From Pyrodictium delaneyi (GTDB taxonomy: Archaea; Thermoproteota; Thermoprotei_A; Sulfolobales; Pyrodictiaceae), in contig NZ_CP013011.1 in assembly GCF_001412615.1 (NCBI RefSeq), positions 1,500,001 through 1,532,000 on the forward strand: 32,000 bases of DNA, read 5' to 3'. The notes under the pieces were generated by a model. It ran no database searches. It saw only the letters and a list, made by a program, of their open reading frames with translations, and had not been told where the DNA came from. This document shows, in pieces, positions 11,034 to 30,901 of the stretch (its first letter is position 1; every line of letters starts with the position of its first letter). The position numbers and the translations under genes are program-made.

Positions 11034-11068
11034 CCAATTTTCAACACCATGGGGCAGGGTGATCACGC

Positions 11069-11863: not shown

Positions 11864-11900
11864 CGTGTTTTACTTACAATCATGAAGGGGGTGTTACATA

Positions 11901-12629
11901 ATGGGTAAGGAGGTTAAACTCTTCAGTGAACTAGAGATATGGGCACATAAACACGCTATACACTTCGCAGCCGCCCTAATACTAACGGGGCTGATAGTCT
12001 CCGCCAACAGCCTGCCAGACCCCCTAGGAGGGTTCTTCGAGTGGCTAGCATATACACTAGGTACACCAGCATCCTACTTTGCTGAAGCCCTCGGGCTTTC
12101 ACCGCTCGAGCAGAGCTATAGCGCCTATAGCCTCGGTGTACAAGTAGCTAGGATAGTCCACCGGCTCGCAGGAATAGGAATGGCGTTCATAGGCCTAGTG
12201 TGGCTCCTAGGCGAGCTACCACGGGCTAGGAAGTGGCAGATATGGCCCGAAGGCGGTCTAGGAGCTGCCGTCAAGAATCTGATAGACTACTATGTAGGAA
12301 AGAAGGAACCACGGTTCGGCAAGTATAACCTCGGCCAGAAACTGTGGATAATAGGTGTAGTCGTTGGCTTTACGCTACTCTTCATAACAGGCATAATAAT
12401 GTGGTTCCGCGACAGTTTCAGCCAAAGCGTGGTAAACACTGCTCATACGCTACACACATGGCTAGCATGGATAAGTATTGCTGGACTAATAATCCACATA
12501 TATCTCGCCATAGGAATACCAGAGCATAGGCCAATGCTGAGAGCCATGTTCCGCACCGGTACTGCACCAGAAGAGTTTGTGAAGAAGCATCACCCATTAT
12601 ACTATGAGAAAATAAGAAGCGAAGACTAA
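11901..12629 (+). CDS. fdnI: Formate dehydrogenase cytochrome b (gamma) membrane subunit
   Basis: 242 aa with 4-5 predicted TM helices. Conserved-looking His are at helix ends (HKHAIHF, RIVHRL, HTLHTW, IIHIYL), as in the FdnI/cytochrome b561 family. SD GGGGGTG lies at 11887-11893. The gene position after fdnH also fits. Confidence 0.8.
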   Translation: MGKEVKLFSELEIWAHKHAIHFAAALILTGLIVSANSLPDPLGGFFEWLAYTLGTPASYFAEALGLSPLEQSYSAYSLGVQVARIVHRLAGIGMAFIGLVWLLGELPRARKWQIWPEGGLGAAVKNLIDYYVGKKEPRFGKYNLGQKLWIIGVVVGFTLLFITGIIMWFRDSFSQSVVNTAHTLHTWLAWISIAGLIIHIYLAIGIPEHRPMLRAMFRTGTAPEEFVKKHHPLYYEKIRSED

Positions 12630-12674
12630 GCTCTCGGCAATACATTGAAACAACTATGCTGCATATACATCCTC

Positions 12675-12696
12675 TATTCTCTTTTTCATATTCTTA
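12675..12696 (+). terminator. T-rich tract (TATTCTCTTTTTCATATTCTT) after fdnI; candidate archaeal terminator
   Basis: Contains T5 at 12682-12686 in a pyrimidine-rich context, 50 nt after the stop. It is followed by AT-rich promoter-like sequence before the next gene. Confidence 0.35.
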
Positions 12697-12741
12697 CCTT
12701 ATGTCGAAGTTTACATTAAAGTTGAGAGTAATATAGATAAG

Positions 12742-13575
12742 ATGGAGATGGTACTAGACATGACTGCAGGGGAAGTTACACCAGGCGCAGATGCCACTAA
12801 AGAATGTAGTCTAGCCACAACGCTTGTAGCAGGACTACGCATAGCAGCAGACTACAAGTACATAATAGAGGTTGACGACAAATACGTCGGCTCTATACAC
12901 ACGAGCCCGAACTACTTGGCTGACGCCATAGCAGGGCTAGCTCTACGCGATGGATTGGCTACCCTAGGCGATCATGTAGAGCTTGTCGAGGTCAAGCCGT
13001 TAGGCGATATGAGCTTCCTAGTTAGGGCTCGACTTGTCAGGGCTATGGCTACGAGCCTTCCCGATGAGAGACCGCTCGACTGGAACGTCATAGAAAGAGT
13101 CTATCGTGACCTGATAAGGTCTGTGCCTAAGGCTCAATGCCCCTTCGCCGTACACACTGTGGCCGTATACGGGATACCTCAAGACGGTGAACCGCGGAGG
13201 TTGATACTCGTCAGTGATGTCAGCCGCCATAGTGCAGTGCTGAAGGCTGCAGGTATGCTCTCGAGACTTGCTAGCTCTGGGAAACTACGTGGTCTTGCAT
13301 TGCTCGCTGTCTCCACAGGGAGGATATCCGGCGACGCTGTAGAGGCTCTGGCAAGGGCTGGAGTCCGGGTCATAGTTGCCAATCATCATCCGTTGTTGAG
13401 TGGCCTTGCAGCCGCTCTTCGCCATGGTGTTGCACTGGTGCTGCGTAGGCCCGATAGCCGAGGCCTCGCAGTCTACACGTCGCCGGAACTGGTAGTTAAT
13501 GCGCCCCTAGTGTTGTCGGTTAAGGAGGCAGGAGAGCCACCTTCTTATGCTGCCTCTATACTGCCGGTGTGCTGA
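12742..13575 (+). CDS. fdhD: FdhD-like formate dehydrogenase accessory protein (divergent; lacks the CxxC sulfur-relay loop)
   Basis: 277 aa. Blocks align by eye with E. coli FdhD: HTSPNYLADAIAGLALRDGL with ASPKDLEYFALGFSLSEGI; CPFAVHTVAVY with GCTHAAAWM; DVSRHSAVLKAAG with DVGRHVALDKLLG; STGRISGDAVEALARAGVRVIVA with [22 protein letters not shown]. Confidence 0.7.
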   Translation: MEMVLDMTAGEVTPGADATKECSLATTLVAGLRIAADYKYIIEVDDKYVGSIHTSPNYLADAIAGLALRDGLATLGDHVELVEVKPLGDMSFLVRARLVRAMATSLPDERPLDWNVIERVYRDLIRSVPKAQCPFAVHTVAVYGIPQDGEPRRLILVSDVSRHSAVLKAAGMLSRLASSGKLRGLALLAVSTGRISGDAVEALARAGVRVIVANHHPLLSGLAAALRHGVALVLRRPDSRGLAVYTSPELVVNAPLVLSVKEAGEPPSYAASILPVC

Positions 13576-13727
13576 ATCTTACCCTGACCCGGCATCAATT
13601 AATAACCCCGTGAATGCACACCATTCTTTATGACAGCCTAAGGGTGTGGCTATGAACACGTATATGACTTCGTGCTTTACTAGCCTAGAGGATTTGTTCT
13701 CTTGTACATAACGCTTAGACTATAGTT

Positions 13728-14666
13728 GTGAGGTTTCGTGTTATGGGTAGTGGGAAGCACGTACTTCTGCGCGACAGATTTCCCGAGATAAGAAGTTGGC
13801 TCGGGAAATTCTCTGAAGAGGACAAGAGGAACGAATCTTCTTACCGCATACTGGAGGCCCTATACGAGGTCCAGGCACGTATAGAGGAGGAGGCTCTGCG
13901 CCGCCTGGAGGAGGCTGGACTAATTGAGGAAGTAGCTAAGGCAGCACGGAAGATAGCATTTCAACGCGTACCTCTCATCATAATTCTTGGTGGTCTCCCT
14001 AAACCGCTTATGGATGAAGAATTTCTGCGCCGCTCGATGCTCGATATAATAGACGCTGTAGCAAGGGAGGGCTACAGTCTCAAAGGTGCTACAGCTTCCC
14101 TCCGCGATCCAGTGGAGAAGGCAGCATTAAGTATCTCTCAGCTCGTTGAAGAGCTATTGGAAGGTCGAGAAGATAGTATCCATGCATGGGCAGGCGCTGT
14201 CTCAGCTGACCGGGACCGTGTTCGGGCGCTGGCCCTTTGGTTAATCCAGCCCTTGCTTAGTGCACTACGCGTAGCTGCTAGCAACGCATTAGGTTGGGTT
14301 CGGGAATACTGGCAGCAAGGTCTTTGTCCAGTCTGTGGTTCTGTCACACGCGTCGGGTACATGAAGGGGGAAGGGAGGAAGCAGTTCCTCCGTTGCCAGG
14401 TCTGCGGAATGGAGTGGGTCTTTCCCCGCGCTCGATGTCCCTATTGTGGCACGGACAAGCCAGGCGATGTGGTATTCTATCAACCTCTGGAGTCTAGGCA
14501 ATGGTTACGGCTTTACTATTGCCGCCATTGCGGAGCCTACTGGAAGATAGTAGATGAGGAGGATGAAGCCGCCGCCAAGAGCGGGCTACCACCAAGAGAA
14601 CTTTACGACGTCTATACTTTTATCCTCGACTCTGTAGCCGAGGCAATGACCTCCAAGAGGCAGTAG
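13728..14666 (+). CDS. fdhE: FdhE formate dehydrogenase maturation protein (four CxxC rubredoxin-like knuckles)
   Basis: C-terminal region GLCPVCGS...FLRCQVCGMEW...RARCPYCG...YYCRHCGAYWK matches the FdhE pattern CPVCGS..RYL.C.LC..EW...R.KC..C......C..C..Y.K. A GTG is at 13728 and an ATG at 13743. Confidence 0.85.
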   Translation: MRFRVMGSGKHVLLRDRFPEIRSWLGKFSEEDKRNESSYRILEALYEVQARIEEEALRRLEEAGLIEEVAKAARKIAFQRVPLIIILGGLPKPLMDEEFLRRSMLDIIDAVAREGYSLKGATASLRDPVEKAALSISQLVEELLEGREDSIHAWAGAVSADRDRVRALALWLIQPLLSALRVAASNALGWVREYWQQGLCPVCGSVTRVGYMKGEGRKQFLRCQVCGMEWVFPRARCPYCGTDKPGDVVFYQPLESRQWLRLYYCRHCGAYWKIVDEEDEAAAKSGLPPRELYDVYTFILDSVAEAMTSKRQ

Positions 14667-17866: not shown

Positions 17867-18740
17867 ATGATGCTAGCTTGGTGAGCAACGGCTTAGACAA
17901 CGCTGTAGCCAAGGCAAAGAACGAAAACCCGACTACTCCAGTCATAAGTCCAATCTTCTCTAGCATCATTGCTACAGCGAGTGAGGCCAGTGATAGTACA
18001 AGAGAGGCTATTTTAATCATTAGACTCGGTGCTTCGAGTATTTCTTCTACCCTCTTTATCCTGGCCAGTATGAGGCCTGCAGCTATCAAACCCGCATCTA
18101 TTCCCGTTAACCGGGCTGCAGCTCGATAAGTGGGACTAGCTACGAGGGCTGCAACTGCTAGCGGGAGCCCTACTACGCCTAACAGTAGCGGTACCCAGGC
18201 TATATCTCTCTTGACTAGTAGCTTGTACGCTGCTATTGACATCACCGTGCCGATTACTATGCCTCCTACTACGTCGCGAGGATAATGGACATGGAGAACT
18301 AGTCTCGATAGAGATACCGCCGCCGTATGTACTACACCTACAACAGCTAGCAACACACTGCGTGTATATAGAGCTACCATAGCCCAGAAAGCTGCACTAA
18401 GTGCTGCATGACCACTGGGAAATGCCGGGCCCGAGGCTTCCACTAGCCACGTTTCCATTGGGGGCCTAGGTAATCCAACGAACACTTTGAGAGCAACTAC
18501 TATACTAGAGACAAGTGCTAGGCCCGATACCAGTCTGACACCTAGCACACCACTGAGAAGCGCGTAGATGAGAATACCAACAAGCATGTAGATGGCCTCG
18601 TCGCCTAGGTATGTCACAGCTCTGCAGTAGTCTATGCTGCCAGATATACAAGTGATAAGCTCGAGTGAAGCACCCACCAAAAGGGCGAACTCTAGTAATC
18701 TGTGTTTGTCCATCAGCTTGTGCCCCTCCCTGTTTTCCAC
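17853..18740 (-). CDS. PAP2-family membrane phosphatase (polyprenyl-diphosphate phosphatase-like) with extra C-terminal TM helices
   Basis: Three PAP2 motifs: KVFVGLPRPP, FPSGHAA and SRLVLHVHYPRDVVGG. The likely true start is the ATG at 18713, which shares one nt with the upstream TGA (TGATG). The 3' end overlaps the convergent PRTase gene by 14 nt. Confidence 0.8.
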   Translation of the reverse strand: MENREGHKLMDKHRLLEFALLVGASLELITCISGSIDYCRAVTYLGDEAIYMLVGILIYALLSGVLGVRLVSGLALVSSIVVALKVFVGLPRPPMETWLVEASGPAFPSGHAALSAAFWAMVALYTRSVLLAVVGVVHTAAVSLSRLVLHVHYPRDVVGGIVIGTVMSIAAYKLLVKRDIAWVPLLLGVVGLPLAVAALVASPTYRAAARLTGIDAGLIAAGLILARIKRVEEILEAPSLMIKIASLVLSLASLAVAMMLEKIGLMTGVVGFSFFALATALSKPLLTKLASSKLE

Positions 18741-19729
18741 AACTTTTCGAGGCTCCTTGCTATTATCTCGAGCTGTATGTCGCTGGTTCCCTCAGCCGGC
18801 TCTAGTGCGTAGAGGTGGAGCAGAAGGTCAGTGAGACCCATACCTCTGCGTACTGCGTGACCGCCGAAAGTACGGAGAGCTGCGTCAGCCGCCGCTAGCC
18901 CCATTTCAACTGCGACATACTTGGCTGCACTTGTAAGCCCCCAGTCGACTCCACTACCGCTTTCGAGTACATCAGCTGCCTTTTCCACGAGTGCTTTTGC
19001 AGCCTCAAGTCCTGCGTAAGCTCGAGCAAGTCTGTGGCTTACAGCCTGGAACCTGTAGACGTCTCTCTCAAGTGCCCAGTCTAGGGCCTTTTCAAGCACC
19101 GTATTAGCAAGGCTTACAGCAAGTGCTGCAACGAGGACTCTGCTTTCAGCTAGAGACCGGAGTACTACACGATAAGGCTCCCGGCCTGGGCCAGCTATGA
19201 GCCGTGCTTCCACATTCTCTAGCCGGAGCCTTGCTATTCCACTACAGCTATAGGCCTCTAGATCCAGAGGTTCGGCGTGAAGCCCAGCCGCATTCGGCTC
19301 AACAAGGGCTAAGACGTGGCCGCCGTTGCCCTGAGCGAAAACGAGTATCGCTGAAGCATAGAGAGCATTCGTCGCGAAGACCTTCTCTCCAGTTATACTT
19401 ACCCTCCCATCATCCAGTATCTCGGCACGGGTCTCAACGCCCGCTAGATCCGAGCCTCCGCGAGGCTCAGTGAGTGCCGGGGATAGCAACCCCTCGGGGA
19501 CCTGAACACCGAGACCTTCTAGGATGCGGCGTGCTACACAATGGCTTACCAGGCTCATACCCGTGCATGGATCTATACGCGTCTCCATAACTCTACGGGC
19601 TAGCATGCCTAGGTTGCTACAGTCTCCTGCTAGCTCGAGAACACGTGTTACGAGATTATGCTGGCTAGTGCTCAAGACGCCGAGGCACCGGGGGTCTAAC
19701 ATCTCCATAGCGGGAGGCTTTAACTTCAC
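18713..19729 (-). CDS. Acyl-CoA dehydrogenase family protein (short N-terminal domain)
   Basis: ALTEPRGGSDLAGVETRAE..DG..ITGEKVFATN matches the ACAD middle domain. FQAVSHRLARAYAGLEAAKAL and TFGGHAV...EPAEGTSDIQLEIIARSL match the C-terminal domain, including the catalytic-Glu region. At 338 aa it is shorter than the usual ~380. It has a GTG start. Confidence 0.7.
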   Translation of the reverse strand: MKLKPPAMEMLDPRCLGVLSTSQHNLVTRVLELAGDCSNLGMLARRVMETRIDPCTGMSLVSHCVARRILEGLGVQVPEGLLSPALTEPRGGSDLAGVETRAEILDDGRVSITGEKVFATNALYASAILVFAQGNGGHVLALVEPNAAGLHAEPLDLEAYSCSGIARLRLENVEARLIAGPGREPYRVVLRSLAESRVLVAALAVSLANTVLEKALDWALERDVYRFQAVSHRLARAYAGLEAAKALVEKAADVLESGSGVDWGLTSAAKYVAVEMGLAAADAALRTFGGHAVRRGMGLTDLLLHLYALEPAEGTSDIQLEIIARSLEKLWKTGRGTS

Positions 19730-19886
19730 GGCTTACCTTTACTTGTTCATCTCGTTCTCCCTTTGGTACTGTTACATTGCCTCCTAAGGGCTTGATATGT
19801 ACAATCCATGTCACGCAGTCTACAGACTACCTGGGTCCATTACATCCGCTACATTGTAGCACGTGCTCAACAATGCATCTCGTAAT

Positions 19887-20285
19887 TCAGCGTTTTTCTG
19901 CTGCAAGTGGATCACCTATTAGGCTGGAACGGTTTGCTGTAGCCGGCGGCACGATGTTACTCGTTTTGTAGGCGTGTCGTGGACAGATGTCTACGCAGTG
20001 GTAACAGAACATACAGAGATCGTAATGCACTACCGGATATCGACGTGGCCTCTTAGCATTTTCCTGGCCTGGTAGTAGCTTCATCTCTATCGCTCCCGGC
20101 GGGCACTCTATAGCGCATAGACTACAGCCTATACACTTCTCCACATCAACCACGTGGAGGCCGCGATACCCACCACTAGGAGTTGGGCCGGTTTTTAGGC
20201 CGTATTCTATTGTGGCAGGCCGCCTAGCCAAGTTTGATACGAGTTCACTTAGCATGATAAGTATACGCGGCTTCACAACTTCCAC
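19887..20285 (-). CDS. nuoI: 2x[4Fe-4S] ferredoxin subunit of the membrane-bound hydrogenase/complex-I-like enzyme (NuoI/MbhN-like)
   Basis: CIGCSLCAIECPPGAI and CMFCYHCVDICPRHA, separated by a spacer as in NuoI. It is the last gene of the operon. It has a GTG start. Confidence 0.85.
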   Translation of the reverse strand: MEVVKPRILIMLSELVSNLARRPATIEYGLKTGPTPSGGYRGLHVVDVEKCIGCSLCAIECPPGAIEMKLLPGQENAKRPRRYPVVHYDLCMFCYHCVDICPRHAYKTSNIVPPATANRSSLIGDPLAAEKR

Positions 20286-20290
20286 CCCTT

Positions 20291-21469
20291 CTATTGATCT
20301 GCCCGCCGACGAGCTAGTTGACGTAAGTTCTCTAGACGTTCGCGCCCAGTACGTTCATCAACTACTATAACGCGCTCCATGCATGATATGCAGGGATCAA
20401 GACTTGCTAGTATGACCGGTATATCCGCCAATGTGGCACCTTGGTAGGCTACGAGACTGTTCAGTATGTTGGGGATACTCGGCGTCCTTATCTTTACTCT
20501 ATAAGGCTTAGTGCCGCCCCGACTAACAACATGGTATAGGAGTTCACCACGTGGAGCCTCAACTCGTGATATTGCCTCACCCTCACGGAACCGGCGAGGC
20601 GGAGTCTTCAGACTGTTAATTGGACCGCTTGGCAGTTTTTCTAGCACTTGACGTATAATGTTTATAGACTCTAACGCCTCCTCGAACCGGACCAGCATAC
20701 GGGCGAGTGCATCGCCCTCACTACGTCTAATTACTTGGAAGTCTAGCTCCCCGTACCAAGCATAAGGATCATCGCGTCTGACATCGATATCTACGCCGGA
20801 GCCACGAGCTGTTGGCCCGACAAGTCCATGACTTACGGCCACACTGTACGGTATTACCCCTATGCCTTCAAGCCTACGGCGGAGCAACCTATCGCTTGTA
20901 TAGACTTCCATATAGTATTTTATCCGCTGTTCGAGAATATCCATGCTACGTCTTATCTTCTCTGCTACTTCAGGACTTAGGTCTCGACGAACGCCTCCTG
21001 GCCATACATAATCGGCTATGACTCGGTTTCCTGTGAGCAGCTCCTTTAGGTGCATTACCTTCTCGCGATCCCTCATTATCAGCATGAAGAGGCTCTCAAA
21101 TCCAGCTATCTCTGCAACCACGGCTGCTAGGAGCATGTGACTATGAAGCCTCTCGAGCTCCATTGCTAGGACTCGGAGAGCTTGAGCGCGAGGCGGCGGC
21201 TCGATACCATTTATCTCTTCGATGGCCTGGACATAGCAGTTAGAATGCATCATGTTGCATATACCGCAGACACGTGTCACTATATAGAGGGTTTTTAGGA
21301 ACGTATTGCTCTCAGCGAGCTTCTCTATCCCACGATGGTTATAGCCCGTAACTACCTCTACCCCGACTACGTCTTCACCGTCAACGCGTACACGGAGCAT
21401 AATGGGTTCGTGTAGTGCAGGATGCTGAGGCCCAATAGACACTTCTATTACCGGCATCCCCGTTATCAC
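20291..21469 (-). CDS. nuoD: Group-4 [NiFe]-hydrogenase large subunit (NuoD/MbhL/EchE-like) with an intact Ni-Fe ligand set
   Basis: L1 motif RVCGICNMMH (Cys68 at 21268-21266, Cys71 at 21259-21257). L2 motif DPCISCMER (Cys360 at 20392-20390, Cys363 at 20383-20381). A 26-aa tail VIVVDERTG... follows it. Also GPQHPALHEP and EAPRGEL blocks. GTGA overlap with the upstream gene. Confidence 0.9.
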   Translation of the reverse strand: MITGMPVIEVSIGPQHPALHEPIMLRVRVDGEDVVGVEVVTGYNHRGIEKLAESNTFLKTLYIVTRVCGICNMMHSNCYVQAIEEINGIEPPPRAQALRVLAMELERLHSHMLLAAVVAEIAGFESLFMLIMRDREKVMHLKELLTGNRVIADYVWPGGVRRDLSPEVAEKIRRSMDILEQRIKYYMEVYTSDRLLRRRLEGIGVIPYSVAVSHGLVGPTARGSGVDIDVRRDDPYAWYGELDFQVIRRSEGDALARMLVRFEEALESINIIRQVLEKLPSGPINSLKTPPRRFREGEAISRVEAPRGELLYHVVSRGGTKPYRVKIRTPSIPNILNSLVAYQGATLADIPVILASLDPCISCMERVIVVDERTGRERLENLRQLARRRADQ

Positions 21470-21906
21470 CTCTTATTCCAGTCCTTGCGTAACGGATATT
21501 CTCCAGCTACATCTGGCGGTGTGAAGAACCCTAAGCGGAGACTCTCATTACCCTCAAAGACTACGCCAAAGAGGTCGTAGACCTCTTGTTCATAGGGCAC
21601 TGCAGCGGGGAGTAACAGTGCCAAGCTTGGTGCTCTTGGCTGGCTTCGCGGTACCCGCGTCTTTAGCGTGAGTAGGCTCTTCTCCGGGATAATCCAGAAC
21701 ACATAGTCTAGCTCTATACTGTCCTCTTCAGGGAGATCTATGGCAGTTATCGCTGAGAGGTAAACTCCACGAGGGTAGGCCTCTAGCAAGCTTTTAACTA
21801 CTCCTGGCAGTTTCCAGGGATCATCAATACGTACTTCTAGACGTCGTTGCTTCTTTTCCACAATCTCTACTTTACTGTTCTTCAGCCACAGTTTTAGCTG
21901 CTTCAA
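21466..21906 (-). CDS. nuoC: NuoC/MbhK-like 30-kDa-type subunit
   Basis: 146 aa. YEQEVYDLFGVVFEGN and a R(K)DW-type C-terminus (YPLRKDW) are typical of NuoC/HycE-N/MbhK. It sits between the small and large subunits. Confidence 0.8.
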   Translation of the reverse strand: MKQLKLWLKNSKVEIVEKKQRRLEVRIDDPWKLPGVVKSLLEAYPRGVYLSAITAIDLPEEDSIELDYVFWIIPEKSLLTLKTRVPRSQPRAPSLALLLPAAVPYEQEVYDLFGVVFEGNESLRLGFFTPPDVAGEYPLRKDWNKR

Positions 21907-22405
21907 TTCTGTCAGCCTCCTCTCGGATACTCTTAAGGAGCCTAACTATGGCCTGGAGTATCGCGTCAGGACGCGGCGGGCATCCGGGAATATAGAGATC
22001 CACCGGCACGACGTTGTCGGCTCCACCAACTACACTGTAGCTATTGCGGAACACATTGCCAGAGATAGCACATGTACCAACTGCAACCACGTGTTTTGGG
22101 TCAGGTGTCTGTTCGTAGAGACGACGAAGTCTCTCAGCAGACTTCTTGGTTAGTGCACCCGTCACAATGATTATGTCGGCATGCCGAGGGTTCGGGGCCA
22201 GTCTTATACCGAAGCGTTCTGGATCGTAGAGGGGTGTTAGGGCCGCAAGAACCTCTATGTCACAGCCGTTGCATGCGCCGGTGTTAAAGTGGAGTAACCA
22301 GGGTGAACGTGAGAGCATTCTTAAGGTGAAAGAACTCCCACGATGCTTCACATTTTGCAAGGGGATATACGCCTCCGCCAAATAGAGTATATAGCTACGA
22401 AACAT
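21872..22405 (-). CDS. nuoB: Group-4 hydrogenase small subunit (NuoB/MbhJ-like), [4Fe-4S] N2-type cluster
   Basis: FNTGACNGCDIE (hydrogenase-type CxxC rather than the complex-I CC), GTCAISG and IPGCPPRP. The start is either 22405 (a TATA-like box lies ~32 nt upstream) or the internal ATG at 22318 (MLSRSPWLLHFNTG). Confidence 0.85.
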   Translation of the reverse strand: MFRSYILYLAEAYIPLQNVKHRGSSFTLRMLSRSPWLLHFNTGACNGCDIEVLAALTPLYDPERFGIRLAPNPRHADIIIVTGALTKKSAERLRRLYEQTPDPKHVVAVGTCAISGNVFRNSYSVVGGADNVVPVDLYIPGCPPRPDAILQAIVRLLKSIREEADRIEAAKTVAEEQ

Positions 22406-22479: not shown

Positions 22480-23880
22480 CTAGCGGATTAGACTGACTAT
22501 ACTGTCCACGATGGGGCCCGGCAATACACCTAGAGCTATTGCGGCCGCTGCTAGGATGAGGAGTGGTACAAGAAGCCTAGACGGAGCCTCAGAAGGCAGT
22601 GTACGAGGAACCGTTACCGACGGATGCCAGAATACTCGTAGCCAGAACCTAAGCGCATAGGCTGCAGAGGATAATACAGCAAGTGCTAGCGCAGCGACTG
22701 CTGCTATGCCGTAGACCCGCCCTACCCCTAGGACTATGAGTAGCTCACCTGGGAACATTGCAAAGGGCGGTGCCCCGGCCAGACTCATGGCTGCTACGAA
22801 GGCTGCGAAGGCTGTGACGGGCATGCTGCGGGCGAAAACTCCCATGCTGCGTATGTCGTCGCTTCCGCTCTGCTTCTCGAGCACTCCTGCTACGAGGAAG
22901 AAGAGGGGCTTTACGATGCCGTGTGCCAGGGCTGCTAGTACTCCACCAGCGGCCGCCAGGGGATGGCCAGCGGCAAGCCCGGCGTAGATTATGCCGGAGT
23001 GCCCAATGCTGCTGTAGGAGGCTATGAAGCCTAACCGGTTAGCTGAGAGGGCTCGGAGGGCTCCCACTATTGCCGAGGTTATGCCCAGCCACATCGCGGC
23101 CTCTAGCATGGCTGTGGTTTGGTGGGGCCAGTGGAATCCTGTCGTGAACCTGTACATTCCGTAGGCGCCGATGCTTGTGACCACGCCTGCGAGTAAGCCT
23201 GCCGCGAATGGGGGCACTGAGGTGTAGGTACGTGGGAGCCATGTGTGGAATGGGAAGACACCGAGTTTTATTGCAAAAGCTATAAGTGCCAATGGTAGCG
23301 CTATTGTTGATAGGCTAGCATCCACGACATTGCCTCCGAAGACCGGGGCATTGGCTGCTAGTAGGGCGCCTACCGCTACGAGAAGTAGCAGGGAGCCTGC
23401 ATGCATGTATATGAAGAATTCTGGGGCTCTTCTAGGGCTCCAGAGCCAAACTAGCACCGTGGACACTATGAGTACTAGTTCCCAGAACACATAGAAGAGC
23501 GGCAAGCTATAGGCGTAGACGAGCCCAATAACCGAAGCATGTATAGCAGTTACAACTATCTCAAAGACTGCCTCCCCTCCTCTACATGTTACGCCAGCTC
23601 TGCCTGCATATACTATGACTGTTATCGCTACTAGGGCAGAGAGGGCTGCGAAGAGCTTCGAGACAGTGTCTAGCCCCATACACACTGGAGCGTTGACGAC
23701 AGCTAACCATGAACGACATACAGCGTCGCCGTTGGCAAGCAGCGTAATAATAGCGGACACTGTTATCGAGATTATTGAGGCTGCCCTCCTACCAGCTAGG
23801 ACTGCTGCAGCACCTAATCCAAGCACTATTAGCGACGTCGCATACGCTACTGGTACGCCGAGCACGTTAGCCACCTCCAA
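22480..23880 (-). CDS. nuoN: Antiporter-like subunit (NuoN/NuoM/MrpD family)
   Basis: 466 aa, about 14 TM helices. FAIKLGVFPFHTWLPRTY matches the K..g..P.H.WLPdA signature. It overlaps the upstream gene by 14 nt. Confidence 0.8.
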   Translation of the reverse strand: MEVANVLGVPVAYATSLIVLGLGAAAVLAGRRAASIISITVSAIITLLANGDAVCRSWLAVVNAPVCMGLDTVSKLFAALSALVAITVIVYAGRAGVTCRGGEAVFEIVVTAIHASVIGLVYAYSLPLFYVFWELVLIVSTVLVWLWSPRRAPEFFIYMHAGSLLLLVAVGALLAANAPVFGGNVVDASLSTIALPLALIAFAIKLGVFPFHTWLPRTYTSVPPFAAGLLAGVVTSIGAYGMYRFTTGFHWPHQTTAMLEAAMWLGITSAIVGALRALSANRLGFIASYSSIGHSGIIYAGLAAGHPLAAAGGVLAALAHGIVKPLFFLVAGVLEKQSGSDDIRSMGVFARSMPVTAFAAFVAAMSLAGAPPFAMFPGELLIVLGVGRVYGIAAVAALALAVLSSAAYALRFWLRVFWHPSVTVPRTLPSEAPSRLLVPLLILAAAAIALGVLPGPIVDSIVSLIR

Positions 23881-25168
23881 GCATGGGGACTAGGCCGGGA
23901 TAGACTCCCAGCACGAGTAGAAGCAGCGAATACGCAAGGAGAGGGAGCCAGGGGACGTTGACGCCATGGGATACTTGATATCCACCCATTATCAAGTAAC
24001 GGAAGATGTAGACCGCTGATACTAGGAAGAAGATTGCCGATACTACTGCTAGCCAAGTGTATCCAGCTGCAGCGAATGCTGCTACTACTGAGAGTTTCGC
24101 GGCAAACCCATAGAGTGGCGGCGTCCCGGCTAGGCTGAGTAACCCCGTCACTTGTGCTATTTTGCCGATGCTTGTCTTTTCGTAACGGTGAGCAGTTATT
24201 ACCAGGGCTATGGACATGTTGCTAGCTGTTATGAAGTATATCGGGACTAGAGGGTCGCGTATACCAGATAGCGCGTAGACGACTGCGAGCAGGACAGTGT
24301 AGCCAGCGTCGCTCACCATACTGTAGCCTATCATGCGACGTAGCTCCTTCTGAGCTAGAGCAGAGAATTCGCCCACAACCATGCTCGCCATTGCTAGGAG
24401 GACAAGGAGCGCCGCGATTATTGGGCCGAGCAAGACTCCCGAGGAGGCTATCAGCTTGAAGAACACCAATAATACTGGAGCATCTACAAGTAGGATGGCA
24501 GTAACCACTCCGAGCAAGTGAGCGCCTTGGACTACATCGGGCAGCCACATATAGAATGGTGCAAGTCCGGCCTCAAGCGCCAGCCCCGCTGTGAGGAAGA
24601 CGAGGCCAAGGAGCACAGGGAGAGTCGCCCATGACACCCCTCCCAGGGGTGCTTCGGTAAAGCTGTGAAAGCCCTGACTGTAGAGTAGCCCCATGCCAAC
24701 AATTATGAGGGCTGTCGCCAGTATCGACGAGTAAAGGTACTTCACTGCAACTTCTCCACTACGCCGGCCTCCAAGACTATAGAGACCGGCTAAGGCGGCG
24801 GCAGCCGTCTCTATACCGGCGAGCAAGGTTAGTAGGCTAGCCGAGTAGAGCACGAGGAACCCGCCTAGAACGGCTAAGATAACTAGCGGTGCCCTCACCT
24901 TATCTAGCTCATCTACTAGACTGGCTAGGGCTAGTATCTCTGCCAGTAGGAGGAGTACCGCCATAGCATTATACTCCGTCGTCACGTATAGGATGTTTAG
25001 GCCAGCATACCTTACCATACCCTGGGGCAATACCCAAACAATTACCATCATGTAGATCATTGTGGCTAGTGTCGTGGCTGCTGCTGCACGGCGCGGAAGG
25101 ACAGCAGCGATAGCTGCGGCGGCTAGAGGAACGCCGGCTACCAGGGTTAGTAGCTGGTATACGTCCAT
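23867..25168 (-). CDS. nuoM: Antiporter-like subunit (NuoM/NuoN/MrpD family), divergent at conserved charged residues
   Basis: 433 aa and polytopic. LAGIETAAA is the TM5 Glu block. LALEAGLAPFYMWLPDVVQGA aligns with the NuoN block FK...PFH.W.PDVYQGA, but has Glu199 and Tyr206 where Lys and His are expected. Confidence 0.75.
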   Translation of the reverse strand: MDVYQLLTLVAGVPLAAAAIAAVLPRRAAAATTLATMIYMMVIVWVLPQGMVRYAGLNILYVTTEYNAMAVLLLLAEILALASLVDELDKVRAPLVILAVLGGFLVLYSASLLTLLAGIETAAAALAGLYSLGGRRSGEVAVKYLYSSILATALIIVGMGLLYSQGFHSFTEAPLGGVSWATLPVLLGLVFLTAGLALEAGLAPFYMWLPDVVQGAHLLGVVTAILLVDAPVLLVFFKLIASSGVLLGPIIAALLVLLAMASMVVGEFSALAQKELRRMIGYSMVSDAGYTVLLAVVYALSGIRDPLVPIYFITASNMSIALVITAHRYEKTSIGKIAQVTGLLSLAGTPPLYGFAAKLSVVAAFAAAGYTWLAVVSAIFFLVSAVYIFRYLIMGGYQVSHGVNVPWLPLLAYSLLLLVLGVYPGLVPMLGGG

Positions 25169-25170
25169 GG

Positions 25171-27018
25171 CTAACCACCCATACTTACCAGGGCGACTAT
25201 GATGAGTAGAACGAGACCGGCTAGATAGACTGCATAGTAGTAGCTCAGCTTACCACCGTGTAAGCTGCGTAGCATGCCTCCAAGCTGTAACGAGAACGAA
25301 GTAGCAGCATCAACAACGGCGTCAACGATTTCTACGAGACCTCTAGCCGATAGATTCACAGCAAACAGTATCGAGGGCGCTATTATCCTTGTGTAGATCC
25401 TGTCTATGTAGAAGCCCTCTAGTGCTGCACGCTGTAGAGCCGCTAGCCTAAGGGTTGCCACTTTACGGGTGTACAACAAGAATGCCGTCCCAAGACCAGC
25501 AGCTGCAGCAGCGAGGCTAGCAGCTACCGCTAATGGCCCAGCTTCGCTCGGCTGGAAGGGTGGTACGACTAGGAGGGGCGAGACTAGAGTCATCACTATC
25601 AAGAATAGAAGTGGAGCAGCCATAAATGCTGGTATCTCCTCTACCCTTATCTCCTTGTACCTTGGCTCTGCGAAGACGAGATAGTAGACGAGCTTCACCG
25701 AATAGAACGCCGTGGCCACCGACGCTGCTAGGAGAACTAGTGCCACGAGAGGCTCAGTTGATAAGGCTACTCCTATTATCGCCTCTTTACTCCATGCACC
25801 GTTGAAAGGCGGTATACCGGCTAGCGCTGCCGCCCCTGCTACTAGGCTTGCAGCGAGGAGTGGACTACGCCGGGCAGCACCTGCCACATAGCGCATATCC
25901 CTTGCAATCTCTGGACCAAAGATGGGCTCAAACTCGTGTATAACGACACCTACGGCTAGGAATAGAAGGGCCTTGAACACGGCGTGACTAGCTACATGCT
26001 CTAACACTGCTACGAGACCCTCTACGCCTACTCTCCACGTGAGCCCTAACGCTGCAAACATGAAACCTAGCTGGCTTATAGTCGAGTAGGCTAGCAGCCT
26101 CTTTGCGTCATACTGTGCTGCTGCCGAGACGGCTGCATAAAGGGCCGTAGCTGCACCCACAAGCACTACCAGCTGCATGAAGCTCTGGGGCAGAGCGACG
26201 CTACCGCCTATGAGGGCAAGAGAGGCAATCCTTAGAACAAGGTAGATACCCGCCTTGACCATTGTGGCCGCGTGTATCAGCGCCGAGACAGGAGTAGGGC
26301 CCTCCATGGCGTCGGGGAGCCAGACATGCAGCGGCAGCTGCGCACTCTTCGCCACCGCCCCGACAAAGGCTAGCAAGAGGAACAACTTTAGAGCAGCCAG
26401 ACCAGATGCTGCGAGTACGGGGTACTCGACCGAGCCGAGAATAGTATAGACATAGACTATGCCTACTAGGAGGGCTGTGTCGCCTATCCTTGTGGTCAGG
26501 AAAGCCTTGACGCCAGCTGCTGAGGCGCGTGGCGAGTAGTAATGTGCTATCAATGCAAAGCTACAGAGCCCGACCATCTCCCAGAACATGTAAAGGGCTA
26601 CTAGGCTACCAGTCAGCACAAGACCCTCCATTGCGCCGAGGAAGAGTACCAGAAGGCTATAGTACCGCGAGTACCCCGGATCCTCAGCCATGTAGCTGTA
26701 CGAGTACAATATCACTAGGAGGCCCACGAGGCCTACTATCAGCGAGAAGAGCGCCGCGAGCCCGTCGATATAGAGCGAGAGGCTAAACCCACCACCCGGA
26801 ACCAAGGGGAGACTAGGCCCTTCTATATAGAAGGCTGTTTCGGGAGCCTTGCTGTAGATTAGCAGTGCGAGCATCAGTACAGTAGAGCCCGTGGCTAGCG
26901 CGAGGCCCCATGCAGCGCGGCGGCCGAGGAAGCGTCCCGCCAGGGCTACGACTGGGGATGCTGCGAGAGGTGTCAGTATAATCGCGTAGCCTAGAGTAGT
27001 CAAGCTAGCCGTTTCCAT
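25171..27018 (-). CDS. nuoL: NuoL/MrpA-like antiporter subunit with a C-terminal lateral-helix extension
   Basis: 615 aa. AVAKSAQLPLHVWLPDAMEGPTPVSALIHAATMVKAGIYLVLR is the canonical NuoL/MrpA block. The C-terminal GFYIDRIY...VEIVDAVVDAA amphipathic stretch plus a final TM helix resembles the NuoL HL helix and TM16. Confidence 0.88.
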   Translation of the reverse strand: METASLTTLGYAIILTPLAASPVVALAGRFLGRRAAWGLALATGSTVLMLALLIYSKAPETAFYIEGPSLPLVPGGGFSLSLYIDGLAALFSLIVGLVGLLVILYSYSYMAEDPGYSRYYSLLVLFLGAMEGLVLTGSLVALYMFWEMVGLCSFALIAHYYSPRASAAGVKAFLTTRIGDTALLVGIVYVYTILGSVEYPVLAASGLAALKLFLLLAFVGAVAKSAQLPLHVWLPDAMEGPTPVSALIHAATMVKAGIYLVLRIASLALIGGSVALPQSFMQLVVLVGAATALYAAVSAAAQYDAKRLLAYSTISQLGFMFAALGLTWRVGVEGLVAVLEHVASHAVFKALLFLAVGVVIHEFEPIFGPEIARDMRYVAGAARRSPLLAASLVAGAAALAGIPPFNGAWSKEAIIGVALSTEPLVALVLLAASVATAFYSVKLVYYLVFAEPRYKEIRVEEIPAFMAAPLLFLIVMTLVSPLLVVPPFQPSEAGPLAVAASLAAAAAGLGTAFLLYTRKVATLRLAALQRAALEGFYIDRIYTRIIAPSILFAVNLSARGLVEIVDAVVDAATSFSLQLGGMLRSLHGGKLSYYYAVYLAGLVLLIIVALVSMGG

Positions 27019-27021
27019 AGT

Positions 27022-27315
27022 CTACCCCCTTAGTTCGTCTAACTCGTCCACACTCCTAGCCCCATGGAGCCTTGAGGCGCGGAGGGCGAGCGCAGCTGCT
27101 AGGGCCATTATACCGGTGTCGAGAACTAGTATGAAGAGGTAGAAGCCTAGGCTACCACCCCACATGGCGAGGGATGCTGCTGCAGAAGCCGACACAAGTT
27201 CGAGGCCGACCAGTACGCGGAGAAAGTTAGAGTACCGAGTGAGCATGTAGAGGCCTGCAGAGGCTATAGCTGCTAGTGCTATTGAGTAGAATATGCTAGT
27301 CTCCACCGTCTTCAC
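27022..27315 (-). CDS. nuoK: NuoK-like small membrane subunit
   Basis: 97 aa with three TM helices. LVGLELVSASAAASLA resembles the NuoK L.slEim.na block with its membrane Glu. It sits between the J-like and L-like genes. Confidence 0.7.
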   Translation of the reverse strand: MKTVETSIFYSIALAAIASAGLYMLTRYSNFLRVLVGLELVSASAAASLAMWGGSLGFYLFILVLDTGIMALAAALALRASRLHGARSVDELDELRG

Positions 27316-27730
27316 CTCCCGCCACGACTCTTAACGCTAGCAACACTGAGGCTAGCGGAGCAGATGCCAGGGCTACTGCTAGAGGAGCCCATTCCTCTGC
27401 ACTGAGCTCCCGGGGCTGCTGTATATGAGAGCCAGCGATGGCTAGGGCTACGAGCACCACGAGTGCACCTATAGCCCCCATACCCGGGACGACGCCCCGC
27501 TTCGAGCCGCCCAACTCGGGAGCCAGGAAGCCTGCAGCTGCTAGAAACCCGGCTGCGAGTGAGAGCTGTACAACGGCTGCAACAACTTCGCCCATATCAA
27601 TAAACATTAACGCGAGGAGCACCAGAGCTGCGGTGGAGGAGAGTAACACTCGCTCGTCTCGCCCCGTGGTGGCAGCATAGAACGCCGCTACAGCCGCCGC
27701 AGCTGCTAGTACTCCTGCGAAGATACTCAC
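27296..27730 (-). CDS. nuoJ: NuoJ-like membrane subunit
   Basis: 144 aa and hydrophobic. GEVVAAVVQLSLAAGFL loosely matches the NuoJ F.a..Q..vY.GA block. The call rests largely on the canonical H-J-K-L gene order. Confidence 0.55.
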   Translation of the reverse strand: MSIFAGVLAAAAAVAAFYAATTGRDERVLLSSTAALVLLALMFIDMGEVVAAVVQLSLAAGFLAAAGFLAPELGGSKRGVVPGMGAIGALVVLVALAIAGSHIQQPRELSAEEWAPLAVALASAPLASVLLALRVVAGGEDGGD

Positions 27731-27737
27731 TCTGTTA

Positions 27738-28694
27738 TCACCCCTTAACTATTAGTGCTAGAGCCGCAATTATGAAGGAGCATGGCACTATGGCAGTCCA
27801 TGAGGCTCTCCCCACGTCTACGAGCCGTAGCCTCGGAGCTGCTGCATCTACTAGTGTAGCAGCAATGGCAACTGCTAGCCCTGTCCCCAGGAGCGCAAGG
27901 AGCCCTGCTATGCCGCTCCAGGGCGGCGCGAGGAACAGCGTCGTGTAGTAGTATAGCGAGACAGTCTCGTGGATACGATGCGTCAAGTGTGCAAACGCGA
28001 GGCGACGACCACTCATATCCGCCATTAAGCCACCTGCAATCTCGGTCTCAGCCTCTGCCACGCTAAACGGGTCCTTGCCTGCCTCGGCTAGGATCAGCAC
28101 GAAGCCTAGCACAGCCCCCGCTAGCCACAACGGCAAGAACACCGGCTCAGCAGCTAGGCTGCTCCACAGTGTCCTCCTTATCTCCGCGAGCGAGAGCGAG
28201 CCTGTAACAGCATAGACTATACCAAGCAGGGAGAGGAGAGCAACTTCATAGCTTGCTAGGAGCCCTAGCAGACGGAACCCACCAATGACACTATAAGGGC
28301 TATGAGTCGAGAAGGCTGCCAGGTAGAGGAGGCCAAGCGAGAGGGTTAAACACGCCGCAACGAGCACTGCATCGCCATGAAAGCTAAAGCCTATAGCACC
28401 GCTCCAGGGGATGAAAAGCGAGGCAAACGCGGCTAGGCTTAGACTCCATATCAGCGCTGCTGGCACTGCAACCGGGTCCTGGCTCCGGGGCGCAAGATCC
28501 TCCTTACCCAGCAGCTTCAAGAGGTCTATGAGCGGCTGTAGTAAACCTCCTAATCCAGTATAGCTAGGACCTATACGGCTCTGCAGCCTGGCTACAACTT
28601 TACGCTCAACAGCTTCGAGCAACAGCGCTAGCGCTACCACGAACGTTAGGCCAGGGTATACAGTAGCCTTCACGACCAGGTCTAGGGGATTCAT
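27738..28694 (-). CDS. nuoH: NuoH/MbhM-like membrane subunit
   Basis: ERKVVARLQSRIGPSYTGLGGLLQPLIDLLKLLGKED matches the NuoH ERK..a..Q.R.GPN..G..GLLQP.aD..KL..KE block. PFSVAEAETEIAGG matches PFD.pEaEsEL. ATGA overlap with the upstream gene. Confidence 0.88.
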   Translation of the reverse strand: MNPLDLVVKATVYPGLTFVVALALLLEAVERKVVARLQSRIGPSYTGLGGLLQPLIDLLKLLGKEDLAPRSQDPVAVPAALIWSLSLAAFASLFIPWSGAIGFSFHGDAVLVAACLTLSLGLLYLAAFSTHSPYSVIGGFRLLGLLASYEVALLSLLGIVYAVTGSLSLAEIRRTLWSSLAAEPVFLPLWLAGAVLGFVLILAEAGKDPFSVAEAETEIAGGLMADMSGRRLAFAHLTHRIHETVSLYYYTTLFLAPPWSGIAGLLALLGTGLAVAIAATLVDAAAPRLRLVDVGRASWTAIVPCSFIIAALALIVKG

Positions 28695-29014
28695 AACGTG
28701 TGTCTCCTCTTGAGTATACTACGGGCAGTTATGGCCGAGAAGACGCCGGCAACCATAAAGAGGAGAGCCGATACGTTGCTAGAACCACCAGCTAGTAGTA
28801 CTGCTACGGGCACTGCTTCCACCGCTGCAAAGAGGAGTAGCAGCCAAGGGTATGGCGGCGATGCTTCTCGAAGAGGCTCTGTCTTTTCTCCACACATGTA
28901 GGGCTCTACTGCTTCTCCTTCTCTACGTGGAGCTGGTGCCAAACTTTTTGATGCAAGATAGTAGCTCGCCGATACAACCATTATTAGTACAAATGCAATG
29001 ACCAGCTCTATCAT
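28691..29014 (-). CDS. nuoA: NuoA-like small membrane subunit; first gene of the operon
   Basis: 107 aa with three TM helices. EPYMCGEKTEP matches the NuoA PYECG..P loop, followed by LLLFAAVEAVPV (compare F.lFDvE). Confidence 0.65.
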   Translation of the reverse strand: MIELVIAFVLIMVVSASYYLASKSLAPAPRREGEAVEPYMCGEKTEPLREASPPYPWLLLLFAAVEAVPVAVLLAGGSSNVSALLFMVAGVFSAITARSILKRRHTL

Positions 29015-29290: not shown

Positions 29291-30901
29291 GTGCCACCGA
29301 GGATAGCACTTGTAACAGGTAAGCGGGCCAGGAATAGGGTAGAGAGCGTTGTCTCCGATATACGTAGAGCCACCGGATGGACTATAGATGTCGTCGAAGC
29401 ACCCATTGATGTGGCATCGTTGATACCTCGGGACATACTGGAGGATATACTTAGGGGCTTAAGGGGCAGGTATGACCTCATTATAGTTCCCGGCACCCTT
29501 AGCTATAGCCTCGATGGACTTGAAGAGGCTGCCGGAGCCCCCGTGGTCCGAGGACCACCGGATCCGGAGAGCTTGAGGCTGATAGCCGAGCTAGGCGAAG
29601 ATGGGCTCCAGAGGCTGGCAGAGCAAGGAAGTCTCAGCCCCTCACTCATGCTGGATAAGTGGCTCGAAGAGCTGCGTAGACATCACCTATCCACGCCCAG
29701 TGTCGAGGTCTGCAGCGTCCGTGTACCCGTGAGGCCTCCACCCATCGTGGTGGCTGCCGAAGTTTTTGTCCGACAAGGTATATCGGCCGAGGATATAGCT
29801 GGCAGGGCCGAAGAGCTGCTGGGGCGCGGCGCTGACATTATTGTAGCCGGGTTTGGACAGAGTTGGGAACGCGAAGAGGCTCTACGGGTACTACGTGTAC
29901 TCGTGGACAGAATCGGGCCCGTGGCACTTGACACGCCTGATAAAGTTTTAGCACGCGATGCTGCACGGGAAGGACTTAACTGCCTCACGCTATCGCTTAG
30001 CGAGGGTGACCCACTCTTTAATGAACTGCCTCGTGGCAGCCAGGTTGTCGTCATACCTCTAGATTCCTCGTTCAATGTCCCTAGGAGCGTGAGCAAGAGA
30101 GTAGAGCTTCTAGAGCGTCTCGTAAAGCGTGCACAGCAGAAGGGCCTCGTACCCATAGCCGATCCTATGGTTGACCCACCGGGATGGGGACTTGCAAGGA
30201 GCGTAGCAGCTTACCTTGAGGCTTCTGAGAGGCTCCCCGAGACGCCGCTGCTAGCTGGCATAGCTAACGCTTACGAGCTGATAGACGCTGATAGCCACGG
30301 CCAGGTGGCTGTGTTGACACAGTTGTTCGCCGAGGCCGGCGCCTCGTTGATGCTAGTCACCGAGGAGAGTAGGAAGACCGTTATGGCGACCACAGAGGCA
30401 GCCATAGCGGCAACCATGACTAGCGTATCTCTACTGAAGAATAGGTGGCCGAAGGACTTAGGTATAGACTTGCTCTACGCCAAGGAGAAGAGACCTAGCG
30501 GAGACCAACCCCGGCTGCCCAGGCGCCCCCGACTATCCCTAGACGCCAATACCCTAGCAGCCTGGTACGGGTTCCGTCAGGACCGCACTGGCAGCCACCT
30601 CATAGTAGTCGAAGGCGACACTATAAGAGACGTGTATATCGGGAGGAGGGGCGTCATAGAGCTGCGGGGCAGCAACGGCCGAGATCTCTACAAGGCTGTA
30701 GCCTATCTTGGACTCGCCAGCGAGCCTAGTCATTACGCTTATCTGGGCTACGAGTTGTGCCGCGCAGAGCTAGCAGCAATCATGAAGAGGAGCTATGTAC
30801 AGGACGAGCCGCTCCTAACGCCACCGTGGATGCGATGTAGCTGGTATAGTGCTAGAGCCATGAGCCCCATTAAACCTATAGGACAAAGAGAGAAAAGATG
30901 A
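29291..30901 (+). CDS. Dihydropteroate-synthase-like (pterin-binding) multidomain protein, archaeal type
   Basis: 536 aa with a GTG start. The N-terminal RIALVTGKRA...YDLIIVPG domain, a central TIM-like region with RGADIIVAGFG, and the C-terminal YAYLGYELCRAELA block resemble my recollection of the archaeal DHPS-related family (TIGR00284-type, DUF4346 C-terminus). This was not verified. Confidence 0.4.
   Translation: MPPRIALVTGKRARNRVESVVSDIRRATGWTIDVVEAPIDVASLIPRDILEDILRGLRGRYDLIIVPGTLSYSLDGLEEAAGAPVVRGPPDPESLRLIAELGEDGLQRLAEQGSLSPSLMLDKWLEELRRHHLSTPSVEVCSVRVPVRPPPIVVAAEVFVRQGISAEDIAGRAEELLGRGADIIVAGFGQSWEREEALRVLRVLVDRIGPVALDTPDKVLARDAAREGLNCLTLSLSEGDPLFNELPRGSQVVVIPLDSSFNVPRSVSKRVELLERLVKRAQQKGLVPIADPMVDPPGWGLARSVAAYLEASERLPETPLLAGIANAYELIDADSHGQVAVLTQLFAEAGASLMLVTEESRKTVMATTEAAIAATMTSVSLLKNRWPKDLGIDLLYAKEKRPSGDQPRLPRRPRLSLDANTLAAWYGFRQDRTGSHLIVVEGDTIRDVYIGRRGVIELRGSNGRDLYKAVAYLGLASEPSHYAYLGYELCRAELAAIMKRSYVQDEPLLTPPWMRCSWYSARAMSPIKPIGQREKR

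Follow-up and report, generated by a model that had tools for sequence, protein, structure and literature searches.

Within a 32,000-nucleotide stretch of the Pyrodictium delaneyi genome (contig NZ_CP013011.1, positions 1,500,001 to 1,532,000 of the forward strand; hereafter the window, with positions counted from its first letter), eleven minus-strand genes extending from 29014 to 19887 form an operon of Nuo-like subunits in the order A-H-J-K-L-N-M-B-C-D-I. The tenth gene encodes the large subunit, and the element considered here is the 26-residue extension that follows the second [NiFe]-binding motif of this protein, which is probably an assembly peptide of the kind removed from the hydrogenase subunit HycE. 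The gene comprises the following features:

20291-21469, minus strand: large (catalytic) subunit precursor with NuoD/HycE/MbhL fold, 392 residues plus a TAG stop (open reading frame translation; Pfam PF00346 and PF00374)
21245-21274, minus strand: L1 [NiFe]-binding motif RVCGICNMMH, residues 66-75, with Cys68 and Cys71 (translation)
20372-20398, minus strand: L2 [NiFe]-binding motif DPCISCMER, residues 358-366, with Cys360, Cys363 and Arg366 (translation)
20294-20371, minus strand: C-terminal extension (putative assembly peptide), residues 367-392, VIVVDERTGRERLENLRQLARRRADQ (translation; conservation; HycE alignment)
20291-20293, minus strand: TAG stop of the large-subunit gene (translation)

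Residues are numbered from a GTG start at 21469 that overlaps the stop of the upstream gene; the GenBank version starts at Met5 and counts 388 residues, so that Arg366 becomes residue 362. The protein is 100% identical to a P. delaneyi database protein (P0001) present in both sequenced strains, named "NADH-ubiquinone oxidoreductase chain D" in GenBank and now "nickel-dependent hydrogenase large subunit" in RefSeq, and by gene order it would be Pyrde_1523. Pfam recognizes a Complex1_49kDa domain together with the N-terminal portion of NiFeSe_Hases, and the match of NCBIfam's NuoD model PRK06075, at 358.1, falls just short of the cut-off of 360 and stops exactly at residue 366; the tail is therefore extra sequence relative to the NuoD of complex I. 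The AlphaFold2 model, computed with 58 homologues as input, has a mean predicted local distance difference test score (pLDDT) of 88, and a Foldseek search against the PDB returned Nqo4, 49-kDa subunits, MbhL and HycE, confirming the NuoD/MbhL/HycE fold. The calculated mass of the precursor is 44.3 kDa, and that of the predicted mature form 41.2 kDa.

Both motifs needed to ligate a [NiFe] center are present. Near the N-terminus L1 follows the pattern C[GS][ILV]C[AGNS]xxH and near the C-terminus L2 follows [DE][PL]Cx[AGST]Cx[DE][RL], with R66, C68, G69, C71 and N72 in the former and D358, P359, C360, C363 and R366 in the latter invariant among the 58 aligned homologues. In small subunits of these complexes a spaced CxxC is the hydrogenase pattern, an adjacent CC pair that of complex I NuoB. 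The cysteine pair of the small subunit encoded in this operon is spaced (C45-N-G-C48, accompanied by C112 and C142), as in group 4 small subunits, where four cysteines serve the proximal [4Fe-4S], an arrangement that independently supports a hydrogenase over a quinone reductase. Intact L1 and L2 together with the CxxC small subunit are stronger evidence for a real hydrogenase subunit than the tail itself. A quinone-reducing NuoD was rejected because of the four cysteines, the 26-residue tail and the alignment of the Nqo4 quinone-site Tyr87 to Gly69, and a degenerate relic of the Ehr or Mbx type was rejected as well, all four NiFe-ligating cysteines being kept in the large subunit.

After Arg366 the frame continues for 26 residues (3.15 kDa; isoelectric point 11.2), the identical peptide that an earlier reading made from the sequence only had reported; the range it assigned, 20291-20383, includes the tail and the stop codon and also takes in the codons of motif residues 363-366 (C-M-E-R). 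The predicted cleavage site lies between Arg366 (codon 20372-20374) and Val367 (codon 20369-20371). Both CxxC motifs and a tail of about 17-41 residues are kept in all of the 120 best database matches to the large subunit (54-100% identity), which derive from Pyrodictium, Thermogladius and Ignisphaera and from many metagenome-assembled genomes of Sulfolobales, Desulfurococcales, Acidilobales and Thermoproteales. Orthologues ending right after the Cys motif, or carrying unrelated tails, had been named in the sequence-only reading as the finding that would speak against it, and neither was seen, the tail being kept in every close orthologue. In the 58-sequence alignment the core of the tail begins with four aliphatic-rich positions (V/L/I/A, I/L/V/T, V/I and I/V at +1 to +4), followed by Asp at +5 (51/58), Gly at +9 (49/58), Arg or Lys at +12, Leu at +16, Arg or Lys at +17 (50/58), Leu at +19 (52/58), Ala at +20 and Arg at +21. 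Over the 21 tail codons alignable with Pyrodictium abyssi, 13.5 synonymous differences were counted vs. 4.5 non-synonymous ones; these are raw counts, since synonymous sites are saturated even in this comparison and a ratio of non-synonymous to synonymous rates is not calculable for the tail. With synonymous sites saturated and non-synonymous differences few, the tail is under purifying selection, although it evolves somewhat faster than the body (non-synonymous rate 0.105 vs. 0.071 against P. abyssi). AlphaFold2 predicts a strand at residues 366-370, a turn, a second strand at 377-381 and a helix at 382-391 (pLDDT about 63-80). This predicted shape fits the C-terminal β-strand described for immature large subunits, which pairs transiently with an N-terminal strand (PMC12134894).

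The resemblance to HycE that had been proposed from the sequence was borne out. A phmmer search of PDB sequences aligned residues 367-387 without gaps to residues 538-558 of Escherichia coli HycE (7Z0S chain E), query VIVVDERTGRERLENLRQLAR against HycE MTVVDVRKKKSKVVPYKELER; the ungapped BLOSUM62 score of these 21-mers, 26, was equalled in 11 of 100000 shuffles (p about 1e-4). HycE of E. coli hydrogenase 3 (group 4a) is cut by HycI after Arg537, which frees a 32-residue peptide (PMC7654741). The hycE gene of the E. coli K-12 genome ends ...DPCYSCTDR537|MTVVDVRKKKSKVVPYKELERYSIERKNSPLK, where the first residue of the tail is M and not V, as the sequence-only reading had given it. In both proteins the extension directly follows the Arg of DPCxxCxxR, the E. 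coli junction R|MTVVDVRKKKSKVVPYKELER resembles the P. delaneyi junction R|VIVVDERTGRERLENLRQLAR, and a HycI-family gene stands last in the E. coli hyc operon as it does in relatives of the P. delaneyi operon. The two systems differ in the length of the tail (32 vs. 26 residues), in the N-terminal NuoC-like fusion of HycE, which the P. delaneyi subunit lacks, in the membrane arm, which is a full set of NuoL/M/N/H/J/K/A in P. delaneyi and HycC/D in hydrogenase 3, and in the linked protease gene, present in hyc and missing from the P. delaneyi operon. Homology of the tail to the HycE assembly peptide is well supported.

Other characterized relatives place this tail in context. The best PDB sequence match is MbhL of Pyrococcus furiosus (group 4d, PDB 6CFW; E = 1.6e-73), which has the same L1 and L2 and whose deposited mature chain stops at ...DPCLSCTDR, aligned to Arg366. 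NuoD/Nqo4 of complex I and MbsL (Mbx/MBS, PDB 6U8Y) share the fold (Foldseek template modelling scores of 0.81-0.84) and the operon partners; unlike the P. delaneyi subunit they lack the four cysteines, and their chains stop at or beside the position equivalent to Arg366, without a tail, that of Thermus Nqo4 at the Arg366 position itself. CooH (group 4c) and EchE (group 4e) are four-Cys group 4 large subunits like that of P. delaneyi, but tail-less, and groups 4c and 4e are active in this form, C-terminal processing not being needed (PMC12134894; PMC7654741). The P. delaneyi subunit, unlike CooH and EchE, falls in the tail-bearing majority of four-Cys proteins.

How far a tail predicts a Ni site was evaluated on 150 diverse relatives, obtained by an exhaustive HMMER search of a set of representatives clustered at 50% identity, and sorted by the residues aligned to the four cysteines and by the sequence following the Arg. 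Where the C-terminus was readable, 66 of 96 four-Cys representatives carried a tail of at least 10 residues, 6 a tail of 1-9 residues and 24 none, these last stopping at Arg, Lys or His, whereas of 44 representatives without one or more of the cysteines 6 had at least 10 residues, one had 1-9 and 37 had no tail. Tails of at least 10 residues thus go with four cysteines (66/96 vs. 6/44; odds ratio 13.9, p = 6e-10). The junction consensus of 71 tail-bearing representatives reads V/M/A, T/V/L/I, V/I/L, V/I and D/N/E, and their median tail length is 26, as here. Four proteins (P0332, P0351, P0374 and P0398) have lost NiFe-ligating cysteines and retain long HycE-like tails close to those of four-Cys relatives; the tail of Cys-deficient P0351, TVVLNDIGNGRQRIFNRQELRQYSIDFY, is for example similar to that of four-Cys P0259, AIVVDSGNGRKVMDWQGLRQYSIDWY. 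Homologous tails are thus widespread among group 4 large subunits, and in statistical terms a tail is a good indicator of a Ni-binding form, though not a proof. The argument previously built on it, that a tail of this kind marks a real Ni enzyme and not a relic, holds as far as tails go with four cysteines and falls short where Cys-deficient proteins keep them.

The gene of the HycI/HybD-family endopeptidase that belongs to such a tail normally lies near that of the large subunit, and the relatives indicate which protease may act here. In P. abyssi the orthologous operon (D subunit 89% identical, same gene order, same acyl-CoA-dehydrogenase-like and PAP2 genes downstream) is immediately followed by a gene for a 157-residue protein that overlaps the end of the nuoI-like gene (contig L002:11549-12022). 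Its product, WP_338248794.1, named "hydrogenase maturation protease" by NCBI, matches Pfam HycI (PF01750) with 29.5 bits against a cut-off of 23 and the general model TIGR00072 with 68 bits, after which TIGR00142 hycI is the best specific NCBIfam model; it shares 29% identity with E. coli HycI across 136 residues and keeps the GDD, VDAA and STH positions, (nearly) invariant in a ten-sequence alignment, with the conserved Asp, Asp and His. A HycI-family gene occupies the same place on three metagenomic contigs (L016:1807-2283, with a D subunit 82% identical to that of P. delaneyi, L010:7441-7920 and L012:7532-7969); together with P. abyssi, these genes encode proteins of 145-159 residues, and the best matches of a HycI profile search are mostly named HycI or "hydrogenase 3 maturation protease". 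In P. delaneyi the site is occupied by another sequence:

19645-19886, minus strand: intergenic stretch in place of hycI, not similar to it, slightly AT-richer, with a GC fraction of 0.48 (comparison with P. abyssi, L016, L010 and L012)

DNA similarity to P. abyssi stops right after the nuoI stop codon, where about 536 nucleotides in P. abyssi correspond to about 250 nucleotides of unrelated sequence here (about 19645-19886), and the flanking NuoD/NuoI and acyl-CoA-dehydrogenase regions align. Contigs L011 and L013 likewise have no adjacent hycI and keep the tail. The acyl-CoA-dehydrogenase-like open reading frame that borders the gap (18713-19729, minus strand, 338 residues, GTG start) is longer upstream than the versions of strain Hulk (331 residues) and P. 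abyssi (319 residues); its true start is probably further downstream, widening the gap after the operon.

Taken together, residues 367-392 are probably the assembly peptide of a group 4 large-subunit precursor, cut after Arg366 by a HycI-family endopeptidase. The sequence of events proposed here is modeled on what is established for HycE/HycI and HyhL/HypA. With its predicted β-hairpin and basic helix, the tail would prevent the active-site pocket from closing and hold off the NuoB-like small subunit; in the meantime Fe(CN)2CO would reach Cys68, Cys71, Cys360 and Cys363 by way of HypCDEF, and Ni by way of HypA. Once Ni is in place, the endopeptidase would cut after Arg366 and free the 3.15 kDa peptide, whereupon the new C-terminus would fold inward, close the site and permit assembly of the 41.2 kDa mature subunit with the rest of the complex. 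For P. delaneyi, both the cut at Arg366 and the protease responsible are inferred by analogy: because the operon-linked gene is absent, the protease would have to be encoded elsewhere, for example as the one that matures the hydrogenase of group 3 or group 1g. The P. delaneyi proteome tables name a single maturation protease, Pyrde_0397, which belongs to the group 1g cluster. In Thermococcus kodakarensis a group 3b and a group 4d enzyme share one endopeptidase, according to the account of Kanai (2017) given in PMC7654741; E. coli HycI and Pectobacterium HyfK complement one another (PMC7654741). No hyp genes lie in the 32 kb window, but two HypA and HypCDEF, without HypB, are reported for the genome (PMC5556600), and a lack of hyp genes, which had been foreseen as evidence against a maturation tail, is accordingly not the case.

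Several observations weigh against removal of the tail as part of Ni-site maturation in P. delaneyi. A working Ni site does not require a tail, nor does a tail guarantee one, because tails of at least 10 residues persist in the 6 of 44 Cys-deficient relatives and the 4c and 4e enzymes are active without one. To our knowledge, no cleavage data exist for any 4g enzyme, the subgroup whose traits this operon shares. Neither P. delaneyi strain has hycI at the syntenic site (the window; contig L015 of strain Hulk, arranged alike), and a tblastn and hmmsearch of the 32 kb window with the HycI profile gave a best E-value of 0.39. No P. delaneyi protein occurs among the best HycI matches, whether by single sequence or by profile, or in the two closest HycI clusters, these being the top 120 matches and not a search of the whole genome, so that a divergent protease scoring about 78 bits, like that of L012, would fall outside them. 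Finally, the proteins of Pyrde_1519-1532 are absent from both the quantified and the unquantified lists of the published tandem mass tag proteome of P. delaneyi, which covers growth on H2 with nitrate or ferrihydrite, two H2-oxidizing conditions. Eight subunits from the second Nuo-like cluster (Pyrde_1473-1481) do appear in these lists, as do Pyrde_1518 and Pyrde_1534, which flank the missing range, and the complex was at best rare under those two conditions. The study recognizes just two hydrogenases in P. delaneyi, one of group 1g and one of group 3.

The absence of hycI beside a selectively kept tail admits a variant that we hold only tentatively, namely that in P. delaneyi and the L011 lineage the tail has been maintained by selection despite the loss of HycI, with the protease borrowed from the group 1g or group 3 hydrogenase or with no cleavage at all. 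If this were true, it would, together with the tailed relatives that lack cysteines, extend the role of the assembly peptide beyond that of a Ni-insertion signal. A less probable explanation is that the tail is a stranded precursor feature, the subunit having remained unprocessed after the loss of hycI and the complex being silent, immature or decaying. The missing gene in two strains, with no orthologue found short of a whole-genome search, and the absence of every operon subunit from the proteome tables are what this explanation predicts, and E. coli hydrogenase 4 offers a precedent, as its hyf operon has no protease gene and shows no detectable activity (PMC7654741). The explanation is nevertheless weakened by eleven intact genes of the same lengths as in P. 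abyssi, by a D protein identical in two strains, by tail and body that differ from P. abyssi chiefly at synonymous sites and by L011 and L013, which keep the tail without an adjacent hycI, while the silence of the proteome extends to two H2-oxidizing conditions only and the cross-group protease of T. kodakarensis, as relayed in PMC7654741, offers another route to processing.

A tail with a role independent of Ni, either a permanent structural element or a segment acting as assembly chaperone that is removed or kept irrespective of the metal, seems improbable. The six Cys-deficient homologues with recognizably related tails, as in the pair P0351 and P0259, agree with such a role, and so may the ordered hairpin and helix that AlphaFold2 predicts where disorder might have been found. 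In mature enzymes of known structure, though, this Arg is C-terminal and has to be packed close to the active site; all NuoD chains stop at it, as does the mature chain deposited for MbhL. Moreover, the tail aligns to a HycE peptide known to be removed (PMC7654741), and the protease gene is operon-linked in four relatives. A NuoD with a fortuitous 26-codon extension, arisen by chance read-through or a mis-called stop, can be practically discounted and was rejected, for although PRK06075 comes within two bits of its cut-off (358.1 vs. 360) and its match ends at residue 366, the conservation data refute it (120/120 homologues down to 54% identity, with synonymous change saturated) and the same sequence occurs in two independently assembled P. 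delaneyi strains, an identity on which a frameshift artefact was rejected too.

As an assembly peptide the tail is an ordinary, textbook feature of [NiFe]-hydrogenases, a real homologue of an already known kind, and the main gain is one of annotation, "NADH-ubiquinone oxidoreductase chain D" being corrected to a hydrogenase catalytic-subunit precursor. The genome paper on P. delaneyi (PMC5556600) assigned the large subunit to an NADH dehydrogenase, and it is not among the hydrogenases listed in the proteome paper. A HycE-type peptide, accompanied in several species by its own HycI, can guide the choice of accessory genes for expression and purification and the mass shift to be expected. The loss of hycI also makes P. 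delaneyi, like E. coli with its hydrogenase 4, a natural case in which to test protease specificity.

The remaining genes of the operon encode the small subunit, two further subunits of the peripheral arm and a complete membrane arm:

21872-22405, minus strand: small subunit, NuoB/HycG-like, 177 residues, with Cys45-x-x-Cys48, Cys112 and Cys142 (Pfam PF01058; Cys pattern)
21466-21906, minus strand: NuoC-like subunit, 146 residues (PF00329)
19887-20285, minus strand: NuoI-like 2x[4Fe-4S] ferredoxin subunit, 132 residues, last operon gene here (family-model matches)
22480-29014, minus strand: membrane arm as a whole
28691-29014, minus strand: NuoA-like, 107 residues, PYMCGE loop, about 3 transmembrane segments (position, size and hydropathy only)
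27738-28694, minus strand: NuoH, 318 residues
27296-27730, minus strand: NuoJ-like, 144 residues, about 5 transmembrane segments (position, size and hydropathy only)
27022-27315, minus strand: NuoK, 97 residues
25171-27018, minus strand: NuoL, 615 residues
23867-25168, minus strand: NuoN, 433 residues
22480-23880, minus strand: NuoM, 466 residues

The membrane proteins of 107 and 144 residues have no Pfam or NCBIfam match; the PYMCGE loop of the former recalls the PYECG motif of NuoA/ND3, and the latter occupies the place of NuoJ. Comparison of the published protein table with the flanking genes places the window at Pyrde_1506 to Pyrde_1535 and, by inference from gene order, the operon at about Pyrde_1522-1532, the anchors being RuBisCO (Pyrde_1506), FdhE (1515), NADH oxidase (1518), dihydropteroate synthase (1533) and GDPD (1535).

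Such a complex has been described as Hfo, an Fpo-like 11-subunit [NiFe] hydrogenase of subgroup 4g, and an Hfo-like complex was predicted in P. delaneyi by Loh, Herve and Brune (2021; PMC7886697), who state that 4g enzymes are biochemically uncharacterized and mention neither a C-terminal extension nor a protease or maturation. The genome contains a second Nuo-like cluster (PMC5556600), with Pyrde_1475 as its D subunit, and neither the text nor the supplements of Loh et al. give Pyrodictium locus tags that would confirm which of the two was meant. The operon described here has the traits of an Hfo-like 4g enzyme, with subunits A, B, C, D, H, I, J, K, L, M and N, no Mrp/Mnh-type subunit among its 11 genes and NiFe motifs in D, an assignment made by these traits and not by HydDB or phylogenetic placement. 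With Hfo it shares the eleven Nuo/Fpo-type subunits, intact L1 and L2 and the lack of an Mrp-type Na+ module, and it differs in its gene order, A-H-J-K-L-N-M-B-C-D-I, which is not that of Fpo. The P. furiosus Mbh, unlike the P. delaneyi complex, has an Mrp-like MbhA-G module and a single antiporter-like subunit. Hfo-like 4g enzymes, uncharacterized as they are, figure in discussions of how energy-converting hydrogenases and complex I are linked. In Thermogladius sp. (L001, CP196893.1, 5455-17107) a 4g-type operon has hypE-hypC-hypF immediately upstream; its large subunit shares 59% identity with that of P. delaneyi, and it includes Mrp-type subunits (MrpF, MnhG, MbhD, MnhB and MnhE) and one antiporter-like subunit. 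Since this operon contains Mrp-type subunits and that of P. delaneyi does not, two different membrane modules host closely related catalytic subunits.

Divergent from the hydrogenase operon, in a neighborhood kept in P. abyssi, lies a plus-strand gene (29291-30901) for a protein of 536 residues that matches PterinBD-DUF4346 and, weakly, DUF6513; it is listed as Pyrde_1533, dihydropteroate synthase. At the opposite end of the window a plus-strand gene (10-1347) encodes a homologue of the large subunit of ribulose-1,5-bisphosphate carboxylase/oxygenase (RuBisCO), Pyrde_1506, detected in the proteome, and adjoins the gene of a Peptidase_C25-domain protein of 819 residues (1439-3898, plus strand; Pyrde_1507). 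The window also carries a molybdopterin oxidoreductase cluster (7239-14666, plus strand; Pyrde_1511-1515), which encodes a 4Fe-4S subunit, a cytochrome b, FdhD-like and FdhE-like proteins and a catalytic subunit of 1264 residues, in which a long stretch (about residues 692-1123) separates the Pfam domain matches. According to the proteome paper, growth on ferrihydrite strongly induced Pyrde_1512 and 1513, and the cluster was proposed there to be a ferric reductase, although the activity of formate dehydrogenase was zero.

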